Shown here one piece after another: positions 15,401 through 29,634 of a DNA stretch of 64,000 nucleotides (the first letter of the stretch is position 1; every line of letters begins with the position of its first letter). Source of the DNA: Haplodiscus bocki (lineage: Eukaryota); contig OZ296653.1 of the NCBI GenBank assembly GCA_965655095.1, positions 32,488,001 through 32,552,000 on the forward strand, given 5' to 3'. The translations under genes and the position numbers were made by a program. The notes beneath the pieces are model-generated. The model was given only the letters and a program-made list of their open reading frames with translations. It searched no databases and was not told the DNA's origin.

Positions 15401-15889
15401 ACCAATAGAATTTACAAGTGGTTATCGTACTGGGTTCCTGCAGGAGACTCTAACTCTGGGACCATTGCTTGAATCAGATACTGCTATTGTTCTCTTCCCG
15501 TTGGCGTTGAATTGTTTCTGTTGAGTTCCCAGTAGACAGGGGGTGGGGCATTAGGTTGGAGTTTAGCCGTGGGGAAAACTCGGATTGGCAAACTGGGAAC
15601 GAATTTGTCCGATACATTGCTTCGAGTCTTTTGCTTTAGTTGTTGTTTGACTTGAGTCAAAGTAAAAAAAGCAAATGAGAATTGGCATAGCAATTAAGAG
15701 TTTTAAATTCATCTCGTGCGTTCCTGGAAGTGGGCTTGTGGCGTACGTCATGTCTTCTGTTATTGATTTCGTTTATAAAGTTAAATATTGGCTTTGCTAT
15801 TCAAGCCAATTAACAGATAAATTTTATTTATATTTTTGCTATTAATAACATTGAAAATTAATATGAATAACATTATTATCAACATTATT

Positions 15890-15960
15890 AGTAGTATATG
15901 TTGGGGGGGGGTTGCCGCACAACTTCATGGCTCCCTAAATTTCATCAATTATTTTTTATT
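15890..15960 (+). repeat. Left terminal inverted repeat of the Polinton
   Basis: agtagtatatgtt(g)nttgccgcacaacttcatggctccctaaatttc, an inverted match to 28850-28932. Confidence 0.85.
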
Positions 15961-16029
15961 TTTCGCAGCATATGTAATATGCAAGAAAATTGTTCATTTA
16001 GTAGTATTAGCGTGCCAAATATTTTTTCG

Positions 16030-17020
16030 ATTTATTCTCAACATTTTTTGATACCCGAAATTAGTGAAATACTAAGGGGTTCCCCTACGAAAATTTTCGG
16101 CACTGTGATACAAAAAATTTTCGAAGGAAAATATTGATACTCCCCGCCCCGCTCTTATCCATAAACTTTTTGGCTACCGGAAATTTTCTGAAACACAGCA
16201 CAGAAGGGTTCCCCTACGAAATTTTTCGGTACTGTGAGACAAAAAATTTTCGACAGAAAATTGTGATACCCCCTCTTATCCATAAATTTTCGATACCAGA
16301 AATTTTCTGGAAAACAGAAGGGTTCCTTTACAAAGTTTTTCGTTTTGGTCCTGTGAGACAAAAAATTTCGACAAAACCGTGATGCCCCCTCCTATGCGTA
16401 AAAAATTTCGATAACAGAATTTTTCTGAAACACCAAACTGTTCTCCAGTGAAATATTTTGGTACAGTGAGACAAAAACTTTTCGACGGAAAATCGTGATA
16501 CCCCCCCCTCTTATCCATAAAATTTTTTCCCTACCAGAATTTTTCTGTAAACACAGAATGGTTCCATGGCGAAGTTTTTTCGGTCCTGTGAGTTAAAAAA
16601 AAATTCGACAAAACCGTGAAGCTTCCCCCTGCTTTGCTTGAAAATTTTTGGATACCAGAATTCTTTGGATGGAAACACCGAAGTGTTCCCCAACGAACTT
16701 TTTTGGTACTGTGTGACAAAAAGTTTTCGACTGAGAAACGCGATACCCCCCTCTCTGATGCATAAAATTTTTCGATACCCAACCGAAGTGTTCCCCAACG
16801 AAATTTTTCGGTACCGTGAAAGAAAAAATTTTGAACGGAAAGTCATGATATAGAAATCTCTTTTGTATAAAATATAGAAATCAGTAGTGGAATTGATGTT
16901 TGTAGAAAACTTTCGTAAACTAGATTTTAAACAGTGGTCTCGTTTTTGACCGTTGGCAAATGTTGATCAAAATATGTGTGTTCGTGCGAAAAATATGCCG
17001 GTGCTAGCCGGCCGTCTTGT
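16030..17020 (+). repeat. Nested non-autonomous element with ~7 tandem ~120-bp units and a terminal hairpin (Helitron/Helentron-like)
   Basis: Unit marker ggtactgtgagacaaaaa recurs at about 16099, 16228, 16347, 16460, 16582, 16704 and 16810. Ends gccgg-tgctag-ccggc hairpin followed by cgtcttgt. Confidence 0.7.
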
Positions 17021-18609
17021 TCAAATTTCGGACCAGAAAGGTTATTAAAGATGCCCAACACATCGATATAGTTATGCTACAGTCAGAACAATGTATACAA
17101 TTGGAGCTTACCAACAATGACTACTGGCGTTTGCAAAATTTTCAAATAAAATCAGAACACGAAACAGGATAGGCAGTGTGGCACAAGTGCTTAAGCCTGC
17201 AGTTCCGACCTCATAGTGCCCTGATTCGAGGGCCGATCGAATCACTTTTTTCACACTGCTATCTTGATGGAATTGTGAATATAACCAAGTTTTTTGAGAG
17301 AGCAAGAAGTAAATTACGTTGAAGATAAAACATTGAAGTTAATTTTGGTGCAGAGTATACACCGACAGCCAACAAAATATGAACAGAAGTGTCCGAATCT
17401 TTGCCATAAATCACACGAAGATCGTCATACGTTCAAGAGTTGAGACAGTCTAAACAAGAAGGAACACATCCAATGAGAGGGTGTGGGAATTTTTTTGTGT
17501 CGCTAAAACAGGTTGGAGAGTGTGTGTGAAAAGTTCAGATAACCACCTCGATCAAATGTGGCAAAGTGACGGATTTATCACAGTTCATTATCTAATAAGT
17601 CACTTTCTCAGCTATTTTAACGTTATCAATAGCTCAAATTTAACTATAGTAAGGTTATGTTCTTTCAAAGTCCGCACAAGTTACTTTTAAAACGCATCTT
17701 CGCGTTAGATATCATTTTCAAAAATGTCATCAGGAAAAGGTTGCTCCATTGAAAGAATGCGCTACCTGATATGCGAAACCAACGAGATACGAACACAAAA
17801 AATGTGGCACTCAACAGATGAAGAAGTGCTAGAACCAGTGGTCAAAAACAATTCATTCCCTTGATGACAATACCCCACCTGGTCGAAAGTCTCAAGAAAT
17901 TCCTCAAATGGGCAATCAATTTTTCGAATTTGGATGTTTCAGTGGCTCTGCGTTTGAGAACTGAGCAAGACAGTGATCGTTCAGAAGAAGACATTTGTCA
18001 TGAATTCGACCGAATGCACTATCAGTTGATATTTTACAGCACTGAATTCGCGAAGACCATGGATAAAATAATAAAAAGAAACTTCAATTTGGCACTGATA
18101 AACAATGGGACCAGACAACAAGTACAAAGTTGAAATGTTTTCCACAAGTAGTTCAGTATTCCGGAGGGAATTTTTGAGACAAAATAAAACGTTCTTGACA
18201 CATGGGACAACAATACAGCTTCATTTGAGCGCAATTAAGCAATCCAACCTTAGCAGTAGTATCGACTGCATTTGAGAAAAAAGTCAAACGGCAGCTTCTA
18301 CCGAGAGCAGTGCATTCAACAAGGCGGGAGTGCTGGAACAACTCGAGCAGCTAGAAATATCACCGGGTCAATTCAAGCAAAAATGACCAGACCAACTTTT
18401 TGACAGAGATCACTGCGACAGAACACAGTTCCGTTTTGCGAGTTTCTATCGACGTGACGAATGCACAATGCAACTGCGAGGAATGCTTTCAATAATTCGT
18501 TAGAAAACAAACTTCACCACAAAACACCTTTAAATATATTGACGAAGACACCGTCCTTTATGAGCACTCATTTAATGAAATTTTTGGATAGCAAACAGTT
18601 GTTTTAATC

Positions 18610-27050: not shown

Positions 27051-27235
27051 ATGGACTGCCTCAGGATAATAAAATATATTGGTTTTGTTCAAAACGAAGT
27101 CAAGATAGGGTTAATCGCCTGTCTGGGTGAAGGTAGATAAGAAGGTGCCATACTACCGCACCATTATTGGACTGAACTAGAGTTAAATCATATTAATAGA
27201 ATCTTCAGCTCGCTGTCCATCTAAGGCCTACATTG

Positions 27236-28187
27236 TCAAAAATCGGCCGTTTTCTCGCAATTATTCTTCACGAATCTCGAAATCACAGTTCGTGAAATTG
27301 TCAACGAAGGCAACCCGGGGGAAATAAACATCAAAGTACTGAAGAAGAGAGTCGACGAATTTGGTGAAGCTGGTGGAGTCATTGGGACTGAGGGAACATT
27401 CGCTCCAAAAGCGTTCACCAATTTGATGCACATCAACTGGACGAAACTTTTTTCAATGCTGGGAATGTCTGAGGTGCCGGAGGACATGAAGGTTCCATCG
27501 CGGCAGGACGATGATGTCGGTCTCCGGAATGAATCCCGGTTCACAACAACAATCTTCTCCGAGGCAGGTGAGATGAATTAAATTCCACAAAACCTATCTC
27601 AAAGTCAAAACTTTGAAGATAATACTAGCAATGCAGAGCAAAGACTTCTGTAACTATAAGTGATATAGCATTCATCTCAATTTAAAGGAGTATTATACTT
27701 AAGCTTCATCTTTAGTTCACAAAGTATTGATTGAACTGAATGTTTAGGGTGAAGGACGGCATTTTGAGCTTCTGTCAGTCTGTTCAGCAGTAACTGCCAT
27801 ACCAAGAAGTCCATGTATATGACTTTAAAAGCGTTCAAGTATGAAGCTGATTGGTCACAATATACGAGAGTCGGGCAGGTCATCATTCTTCACCACTGCG
27901 AAATGATGAAAATTATACAAGAATACAATGCATACATAGATGCGAGAGTGGGACGACTAGCAGAAGAGGATGCCGTGGATGAGGAAAGCGGCGGCGGCGA
28001 GGAGGAGGATGAAGAAAGGCCTTTCGTTGTTTTTAACCTGCCAGCAAAGAAGCCAACTGCGACCGCAACAACCAAGAGAAATACGAAAAAGGCACCGCTT
28101 AATCAGATAGAAAGCGTGGCGTCAAGCTCTACTGCCATTAACGTGCCACTAGAAATCCAAGAAATTACGCTTGACAGCGATGAATAG
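27236..28187 (+). other. Two uncharacterised ORF remnants in the Polinton right arm
   Basis: An open frame ~27236-27580 (..EIVNEGNPGEINIKVLKKRVDEFG..) and ORF 27813-28187 with an acidic tract; both diverge from pPolB. Confidence 0.45.
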
Positions 28188-28849
28188 GATGGATAGATGA
28201 GATTATATAACTTCGAAGTTGGTTAATGGCCTATACATATATTCTCCATTTTACTTCAAATACTACCGGAAATGAGTTTATGAAAGAAAAGTATGCTTTC
28301 GGGCGAATAAATTCGAATTAGCAAAAGTTAGTCGAACATTTGAGAGAAAAGTGATTGAACTGAAAGAGGATCGCGCAAAAATTAATGGGAACAAAAGTAG
28401 AATCTTATGATATCGGTTGTTTTCGATCGCCTGAAACGCACAAGAGTTGAATTTCAATTTTGTTTCAGAGCTGAAAATCGAAAAAAAGTCTCAATGGATG
28501 CAAAAATGAAACAGGCAGAAAAATTCAAAACCTCTTCCAATTTTGCTTCAGAAACGCGCCAACACTAGCGCGCTAAACCATTTGGTCCAGAATTTGCGAC
28601 ATTATGAAATCCTAGTGGAATAAACCGCCAGGCTACAGGCACCATTGCTGTGAAATGAAACTAACCAATTATATATATACAGCTCATCTGGGTAACAGCA
28701 CCGTTTAATAGTTCAACTGTATTAAGTAGAACAGCGTATAAATGAATATAAATGAACTGCAATCACAAAGAATATCTTAATGGCTTATGTAGCGGCTATA
28801 TAAACTTTAAATCTTCACTCAGTTTTTGATTTGTAATACTATATCAAGG

Positions 28850-28932
28850 ATAAATAAAATGGAACACCAACGAAATTTAGAGAGCCATGAAGTTGTGCGG
28901 TAACCCCCTCCAAACATCAAACATACACTACT
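28850..28932 (-). repeat. Right terminal inverted repeat of the Polinton
   Basis: Reverse complement reads agtagtgtatgtttgatgtttggagggggttaccgcacaacttcatggctctctaaatttc. Confidence 0.85.
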
Positions 28933-29634
28933 AATATTGATATTATTATTATCATCCGTAATGGTATTAATGTTTTTACTTGCGCAAGCAAATGTTATAT
29001 CACAGGTTTCGTTTTCTTGTACCGATCCGTACAGAACTTGCATTTGCGCCTAAATTCTAATTTTCCTTGGATTTTGCTCATGCGCTCTCGCTTTCTTTCA
29101 CAACTTTGTTCATTCGCTCTGGTGCATTCGCAAAAATTTGTTCACAGGGCCTGTTTTCTAGCAAACACGCTGCTTCTAACTATCAGGGGAATTAATGGGT
29201 ATAGTTGTTCGTACTTGTTATATTTGTATGAATACGAATTAACTGACTTTGTTACATTCCTGTTTAATCAATACTTTTCGTAGTATCGCAGTTCCTTCAA
29301 AAATGAACTATACTTGTTCCATTTGTCCTTTCCTTTGCGCAATTGTTGCGAAGAGCAGCTTTGCCTGTGTTTTCATTGTTGTTTTTGATAATACTAGTGA
29401 CGACATTATTTATTTTATTATCATTACTGTTATTATTTTTATTTTTAAATATTCTTCATCATTAATACTTTTTTCTTATCTGTTTTCTCCTATTTTAGTT
29501 TTTTTATATTATTGTTGTTAATATTTGTATTTTTGATATTGTTGTTGTTCTTATTAAATATTTTAATAGTATGATAATAATCAATAATGTTCCTAATATT
29601 AGTATCATTATTGTTACGTTTTTTTTTAAAATAA

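Follow-up and report, generated by a model that had tools for sequence, protein, structure and literature searches.

What did the virus-like element lodged in an intron of MEMO1 encode, and why does its integrase gene open with a motif of the 2A/StopGo type? We addressed this question in a stretch of 64,000 nt from Haplodiscus bocki (GCA_965655095.1, OZ296653.1:32,488,001-32,552,000, forward strand), hereafter the window, whose own positions serve as coordinates. The element at 15890-28932 is almost certainly a Polinton, and this copy is a dead provirus with internal deletions. As an insertion it is unremarkable, being one of dozens of dead Polintons in the genome. The point of interest is the integrase gene, in which a leader, a 2A/StopGo core, a PHD-like zinc finger and the integrase follow one another in one frame from an ATG at 21134. 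So far, StopGo/2A has been known from RNA viruses, retrotransposons and some cellular genes.

In the window copy the leader, the core, the finger and the start of the integrase share a single frame interrupted by stops only. The same layout is present in both subfamilies of the element, A (which includes the window copy) and B, and one related copy retains it as a natural open frame of 412 codons. The core, GVETNPGP, is in frame with both flanks and fits the expanded StopGo core (D/G/C/N)(V/I)ExNPGP (PMC12846837; this and the other papers are cited for those parts of them that were available). By eye, the Leu-rich stretch of the leader resembles upstream motif 5 of the same paper, and a structure model of the homologous frame predicts a helix at leader residues 13-33. 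In both subfamilies the leader ATG lies within the 3′ end of the preceding open reading frame (ORF) and belongs to a different frame. Downstream of the core, the finger family conserves eight zinc ligands. Its profile matches PHF23 best in the PDB (E=0.0055), with BPTF, TAF3, Set3 and PHF2 weaker, and all non-integrase PDB matches listed for this stretch are PHD-finger proteins. The ligand pattern, together with these weak but consistent matches, suggests that the finger is PHD-like. The integrase itself is recognized as rve on another copy (E=1.5e-9), and its model matches intasome integrase structures (E=1e-13, Z=18.7).

Comparison of the two subfamilies separates the parts of this gene. Differences between A and B at codon positions 1/2/3 amount to 0.11/0.22/0.59 in the core, 0.17/0.20/0.50 in the finger, 0.24/0.17/0.49 in the integrase and 0.31/0.39/0.42 in the leader, the pairs compared not being independent. 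Core and finger are under purifying selection between the subfamilies; the leader is not. Homologues at 45-47% identity likewise keep the core (8/8 residues in P0027), whereas only 4-6 of 26 leader residues are shared. Across five clusters of 2A-bearing integrases, 36 of the listed members extend over the site and 34 of these have the core; the substitutions seen there (G/N, V/I and N/H) all belong to variants reported as functional (PMC12846837).

Among 80 homologues, 49 have the finger pattern and nine the strict core. In the best 150 representatives after clustering at 50%, the strict core is absent, the finger pattern occurs nine times and a few decayed cores are present, most Polinton-type integrases among them having neither 2A nor finger; the feature is limited to one clade. 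The data also suggest that some distant integrase homologues, including one with 2A, are Polintons too. A tree was computed from the integrase part only, with 26 hand-picked rows; an earlier quick tree of 47 rows gave a like pattern. The finger-bearing integrases form one clade (support 100/98). Those of them without 2A are also a single clade (99/96), nested among the 2A-bearing proteins as sister to the group of the window copy; the test of topologies rejects monophyly of the 2A-bearing integrases (p-AU 0.0095). On the simplest reading of this topology, 2A would have been gained once, along with the finger, and lost once thereafter. At the predicted cut position the 2A-less proteins have a Met followed by a basic tract. 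The integrases of this clade are without what we take to be the chromodomain-like C-terminal motif.

The core is not confined to the Polinton. Back-translated, it gave 169 matches in the genome, as compared with one for the reversed control. Thirty of these 169 loci were read: seven belong to this Polinton family, 16 resemble retrotransposons with an apurinic/apyrimidinic endonuclease (APE), 15 of them with zinc fingers (L101, L103, L106, L108, L109, L111-L113, L116, L117, L119, L120 and L126-L129 being the APE loci), and seven are Helitron-like. The nearest APE retrotransposon family has 14/20 2A residues in common with the Polinton 2A, and a 2A-PHD-APE layout has been described for CR1/Crack (PMC3708506). 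Since the Polinton and retrotransposon fingers align at noise level, capture of the 2A-PHD cassette from APE-type retrotransposons without long terminal repeats (non-LTR) is something that we infer.

Both other groups deserve description in their own right. APE-type non-LTR retrotransposons with an N-terminal 2A comprise at least six families in this genome, in most of which PHD-type fingers follow. One Helitron (L131+L132, C1:134.99 Mb) has a Rep-helicase frame of 2,780 codons (Helitron_like_N, PIF1, GIY-YIG) that has a 2A core close to its beginning; after the core come a zinc-finger-like stretch and one that we take, from its motif, to be OTU-like. The Helitron 2A core repeats at a spacing of about 15 kb in tandem arrays, which lie at C3:133.7-134.3 Mb and at C4:47.9-48.1 Mb. 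In a second Helitron group (L102, L105, L107, L114, L118 and L130), the Rep-helicase frames are preceded by an ORF of about 330 aa that encodes a 2A, a zinc finger and an OTU-like part.

As for function, we lean towards a reading in which the 2A would release the leader in the course of translation and permit a partial restart, and so keep the supply of Pro-finger-integrase throttled. The ribosome would skip or fall off at the G/P of the core, freeing the leader; restart would occur only part of the time and would yield Pro-PHD-integrase in limited amounts. The purpose of the 2A would then be to limit the integrase dose and not to make two useful proteins, because the leader is unconserved and the 2A-less relatives begin with Met at the same spot. 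The mechanism is suggested by the limitation of conservation to the recoding positions, by a leader without conserved content and by the behaviour of Leu-rich eukaryotic 2A-like peptides, which often lower protein output (preprint 10.64898/2026.06.17.732966). The PHD-like finger, in turn, may read chromatin and guide integration, a role in the choice of chromatin that is helped by the absence of the chromodomain-like motif from the clade. More broadly, and with somewhat less than an even chance of being right, we propose that StopGo recoding is used by Polinton-class double-stranded DNA (dsDNA) viruses and by rolling-circle Helitrons, and that a leader-2A-zinc finger cassette, being portable, has spread within this animal lineage over three unrelated element classes (non-LTR retrotransposons, Polintons and Helitrons) to throttle the translation of their integration enzymes; a Polinton integrase would thereby have gained a PHD finger that reads chromatin, where a chromodomain is usual.

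Several observations weigh against these proposals. The finger has no Pfam PHD match, and its spacing from the fourth Cys to the His is one residue less than in the usual PHD pattern. Comparison of Polinton with local retrotransposon fingers gives only noise (best 10.7 bits, with shuffles reaching 9.7), and residues 22-100, compared with longer proteins in search of a finger donor, returned seven candidates, none at E<=1. The tree possibly reflects two independent gains of 2A; moreover, the 2A is dispensable, because a large sister clade does without it. The core is intact in 7 of the 25 copies in which the site was recovered (29 loci examined) and variously mutated in the rest, which is expected of dead copies, yet gives no sign of current use. 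Finally, of ten RAG(V/I)ExNPGP peptides in the above preprint (supplementary file 3), two skipped, three fell off, one reduced output and four had no effect.

The same observations bear on other explanations of the motif. It is conceivable, if rather unlikely, that the 2A skips efficiently and merely trims the leader, which would aid the start of translation, for instance through coupling to the upstream ORF, and would leave a clean integrase N-terminus with no throttling. The overlap of the leader ATG with the end of the upstream ORF in both subfamilies fits such a role, as does a predicted cut at the very position of the Met and basic tract of the 2A-less relatives; but the leader drifts freely in sequence, these relatives manage without any such device, and the look-alike peptides mostly do not skip cleanly. 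The four look-alikes without effect point in another direction, namely to an inactive passenger caught with the PHD finger and retained as a linker or in some other protein-level role. Several retrotransposon 2A-likes are indeed inactive (PMC3708506), and one clade has lost its 2A. Against this, E, N/H, P, G and P are kept across lineages that share 45% identity and whose flanking residues have drifted, and all substitutions remain within the functional set; an inactive passenger is in our view unlikely.

We consider it very unlikely that the leader is signal-like and that partial skipping divides the product between two compartments. Some leaders are hydrophobic (P0027, P0035), and the 2A signal sequences of sea-urchin NLR proteins reportedly offer a precedent; but in the family of the window copy the hydrophobic stretch is short and contains Arg, and a secreted integrase has no evident use.

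The identity of the element rests on its ends, its relatives and its genes, collected with the neighbouring features in Table 1. The AGTAGT start at 15890, the ACTACT end at 28932 and the flanks ATTATT and AATATT (5/6 identical) are as the preliminary description of this DNA gave them. The terminal inverted repeats (TIRs) are shorter than the 70-80 bp claimed there, namely 54-61 bp (54 left, 61 right); they form the longest inverted repeat between distant sites of the window (15898-15943 against 28872-28917, 46 nt, 91%). A 5/6 match of the target-site duplication (TSD) would arise by chance in 1-4% of cases in this AT-rich flank and is weak alone. The position inside a MEMO1 intron was correctly recognized: a Pfam Memo exon ends at 13001 and reading resumes at 34904, where DFCHWG runs on into KRFSYTPY...NTICGRHP, which we take to be MEMO protein motifs. 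The element, 13,043 bp in a 21.9-kb intron, accounts for 59.6% of it, in agreement with the earlier estimate of about 60%. At the family level, PolB, rve integrase, AGT-ended TIRs, a TSD in the 5-8-bp range, a double jelly-roll capsid and a packaging ATPase are all present.

Table 1. Features of the element and of its host intron (window positions; TIR, terminal inverted repeat; ORF, open reading frame).
Feature	Position	Strand	Remarks
MEMO1 exon preceding host intron	12748..13001, 5′ end approximate	+	Pfam Memo E=2.6e-20; GT donor at 13002
Left target-site duplication ATTATT	15884..15889
Left TIR, AGTAGT terminus, ~54 bp	15890..15943	+
Nested high-copy repeat, 1.06 kb	15957..17016, ends approximate	+	Absent from all other copies compared
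Left ORFs, broken	17017..18500	+	From 17724 match open frames of other copies; no Pfam family
PLA2-like gene (adintovirus PLA2X type), broken	18461..19020	+	GPGN and DAAFH motifs by eye; no Pfam match
A32/FtsK packaging ATPase with stops	19619..20360	+	Pox_A32 E=1.4e-5 (above cut-off) on another copy
Conserved ORF, ~200 aa	20592..21210	+	End overlaps integrase leader
Leader, 33 codons from conserved ATG	21134..21232	+	Leu/Val-rich end
2A/StopGo core GVETNPGP	21233..21256	+	Predicted skip between 21253 and 21254
PHD-like C4HC3 zinc finger	21266..21412	+	Stops 21290 and 21398; two ligand positions lost
Retroviral-type integrase	21413..22350	+	Stop 21692; frameshifts near 21835 and 22258
Penton (minor capsid) 5′ stub, ~50 codons	22370..22526	+	Mapped against other copies; no database match
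Deletion junction, 2.5-2.6 kb lost	22526..22537		Rest of penton, small core-protein-like ORF, major capsid gene
Major capsid gene, last 11 codons	22538..22570	+
Adenain-like protease, broken	22590..23074	+	Peptidase_C5 E=0.044 (weak) on another copy
Protein-primed PolB with endonuclease VII-like insert	23600..26920, 3′ end approximate	-	Many breaks; first ~147 codons missing
Deletion junction, 0.69 kb lost	26924..26926		Start of protein-primed PolB and upstream DNA
Two right-hand ORFs	27225..28187	+
Right TIR, 61 bp, ACTACT end	28872..28932	-
Right target-site duplication AATATT	28933..28938
MEMO1 exon following host intron	34904..35076, 3′ end approximate	+	DFCHWG motif (see text)

A genome search with the TIR gave 109 candidates, of which 40 were scored and 30 fetched. 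In 26 of the 30 fetched loci the inner side of the TIR continues into a Polinton body, and none has an outer flank matching the element, although in one of the 29 other outer flanks there is a repeat of 114 bp (70%) that also occurs in the flank of the window copy. At most of the fetched loci the TIR thus borders a Polinton body, with no homology to the element beyond the AGTAGT ends, and the earlier reading of an old integrase-mediated insertion is supported. Near full-length copies measure 15.2-15.5 kb and have the ends and the gene order of the window element. For the 11 other copies with both ends resolved (one more, with unresolved ends, being left out), the TSD is 6/6 in three, 5/6 in three, 4/6 in one and absent in four. 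That the TIR might be an independent dispersed repeat enclosing unrelated gene debris is extremely improbable: four of the 30 TIR loci do lack continuation into a known Polinton body, but against them stand the 26 that have it, the common ends and gene order of the near full-length copies, and a TSD of at least 5/6 in 6/11.

Members of subfamily A are 81-95% identical (mean 86.7%), and subfamily B is 68% identical to them. Differences among close copies are flat across codon positions, the pattern of neutral decay after insertion. The age claimed for the insertion holds in these relative terms. The divergence of the TIRs, offered as a sign of age in the preliminary description, serves less well: inward of the TIR the left and right ends diverge alike in other copies, and part of the divergence is a built-in left/right asymmetry of the family.

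Four public sequencing runs, which represent at most two samples of one study and possibly the same source as the assembly, were inspected for the insertion. Among the joints listed for their contigs (15 of 574) there is no empty allele, a result that carries no inference of fixation; nor is there a loose contig end at the left junction in these runs. Internal contigs specific to this copy have a depth equal to that of the flanks in both samples. At 15627-15655, a contig of run X4 breaks and a half-depth contig with other upstream sequence continues, which suggests a heterozygous indel in the intron to the left of the element.

Some related loci depart from the common form. A Polinton copy at C1:16.40-16.43 Mb (L039-L042) extends over 31 kb and includes about ten tandem 1.6-kb segments of protease and polymerase tail. 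At C4:89.63 Mb (L015, L029, L030), a 5.7-kb tandem repeat carries the TIR with an inner side unlike both tested subfamilies, and is perhaps a third Polinton family. Another locus (L038, C5:98.69 Mb) is an internally deleted derivative of 2.7 kb that keeps both TIRs.

The element had been called boundary-complete. Both ends are indeed present, but it is not complete, because about 3.3 kb including the capsid gene has been deleted. The gene order previously given proved correct on mapping; it overlooked the absence of the major capsid gene, the reduction of the penton to a stub of some 50 codons, the loss of the start of the protein-primed PolB (pPolB) and the foreign insert at 15957-17016. The leader, 2A and PHD-like finger of the integrase gene, the one unusual feature of the element, also went unnoticed there. 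The missing capsid is known from a full-length homologue (P0082, 81% identical), which adopts a double jelly-roll fold and matches the capsids of iridovirus, PBCV-1 and mavirus (E~1e-13). By sequence, the capsid fragment has no match in the PDB. A fragment of a capsid from the acoel Convolutriloba macropyga (48% identity) is the sole homologue that carries a name. No Pfam name was obtained for capsid, penton, PLA2-like, OTU or left and right ORFs, in the window or in related copies. GPGN and DAAFH are taken by us to be phospholipase A2 (PLA2) motifs, and the penton is presumed from its N-terminal motif and gene position. For pPolB, Endonuclease_7 is found in the window (E=1.1e-6) and DNA_pol_B_2 on another copy (E=5e-6).

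In two related copies (L082, L091) the pPolB has N-terminal C2H2 zinc fingers as well as the endonuclease VII-like insert; HNH inserts are known in nematode and oomycete pPolB2 (PMC10748475). A poxvirus-type promoter, TAAATG, was considered and rejected for this family: none of the integrase, ATPase, capsid, penton and pre-integrase genes begins with it, as judged for each gene from those of six copies in which its start was located.

The nested repeat has 11-bp sub-terminal inverted repeats (15957, 16985), internal tandem units of about 120 bp and a 3′ GC hairpin. The summed depth of its contigs is about 10^4 times that of the flank, a figure that is not a copy number. It is likely a non-autonomous Helentron (HINE): sub-terminal inverted repeats, a 3′ stem-loop and a T-rich site are all found. 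HINE/DINE-1 Helentrons, whose anatomy we take from PMC4067079, are alike in these features and also in their tandem units and very high copy number. An inverted partial copy of the hairpin end lies at 9716-9758.

Elsewhere in the window, positions 13750-15250 of the same MEMO1 intron hold a decayed LINE-like remnant, with fragments seen by eye of what we take to be reverse-transcriptase motifs. Over 40600-64000, segments are duplicated in tandem at periods of about 8.1 kb and 1.93 kb, and a retrotransposon gag-like ORF is among the sequences so duplicated.

If the proposed use of the 2A is true, StopGo recoding extends to a class of DNA viruses. The gene also illustrates how a cassette for regulation and targeting may have passed from retrotransposons to a virus. 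It further opens to testing the question of why cellular and transposon 2A motifs sit N-terminally and split off only a short leader; sister clades of Polintons that differ in having or lacking 2A, and are otherwise about 50% identical, lend themselves naturally to such a comparison. Our literature search, which covered the top 10-25 papers listed per query, with subscription papers and Repbase outside it, found no report of a 2A or PHD finger in a DNA virus, be it a Polinton or another, or in a Helitron. Polinton, adintovirus and helitron are likewise absent from the available portions of the supplements of PMC12338488 and PMC13405545, those of PMC12846837 and 10.64898/2026.09.24.754024 being outside this scope.

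Among known systems, the family appears nearest to the Alpha adintoviruses, judging by its PolB type and PLA2-like gene. It shares with these Polintons (PMC8502044) a pfam03175-type PolB, an rve integrase, an A32/FtsK ATPase, a putative adenain-like protease, a double jelly-roll capsid, a putative PLA2-like gene, AGT-ended TIRs, a 6-bp duplication and a length of about 15.3 kb. Unlike that type, its integrase has the N-terminal arrangement of leader, 2A and PHD-like finger and no chromodomain-like C-terminal motif, its pPolB starts with C2H2 fingers, and the window copy is without the capsid gene. Its TIRs, at 54-61 bp, also differ from the 100-1,500 bp published for Polintons (PMC10748475). 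The 2A itself is like class A of the 2A/StopGo surveys (PMC12846837; PMC12338488) in that a predicted helix, rich in Leu, leads into the core G(V/I)ExNPGP close to the N-terminus; the class A upstream motif is Leu-rich and ends in (A/G/S)G, and most eukaryotic 2As lie near the N-terminus. The carrier is different, here a dsDNA virus-like element, in the surveys RNA virus phyla and cellular proteins; as far as the accessible part of one survey goes, viral 2As occur in RNA virus phyla only (PMC12338488). The closest architectural parallel is ORF2 of CR1/Crack/L2 (PMC3708506), where a short leader, a 2A and a PHD-type finger likewise front an integration enzyme; there the enzyme is an APE endonuclease-reverse transcriptase, whereas here the cassette precedes the DDE integrase of a DNA element.

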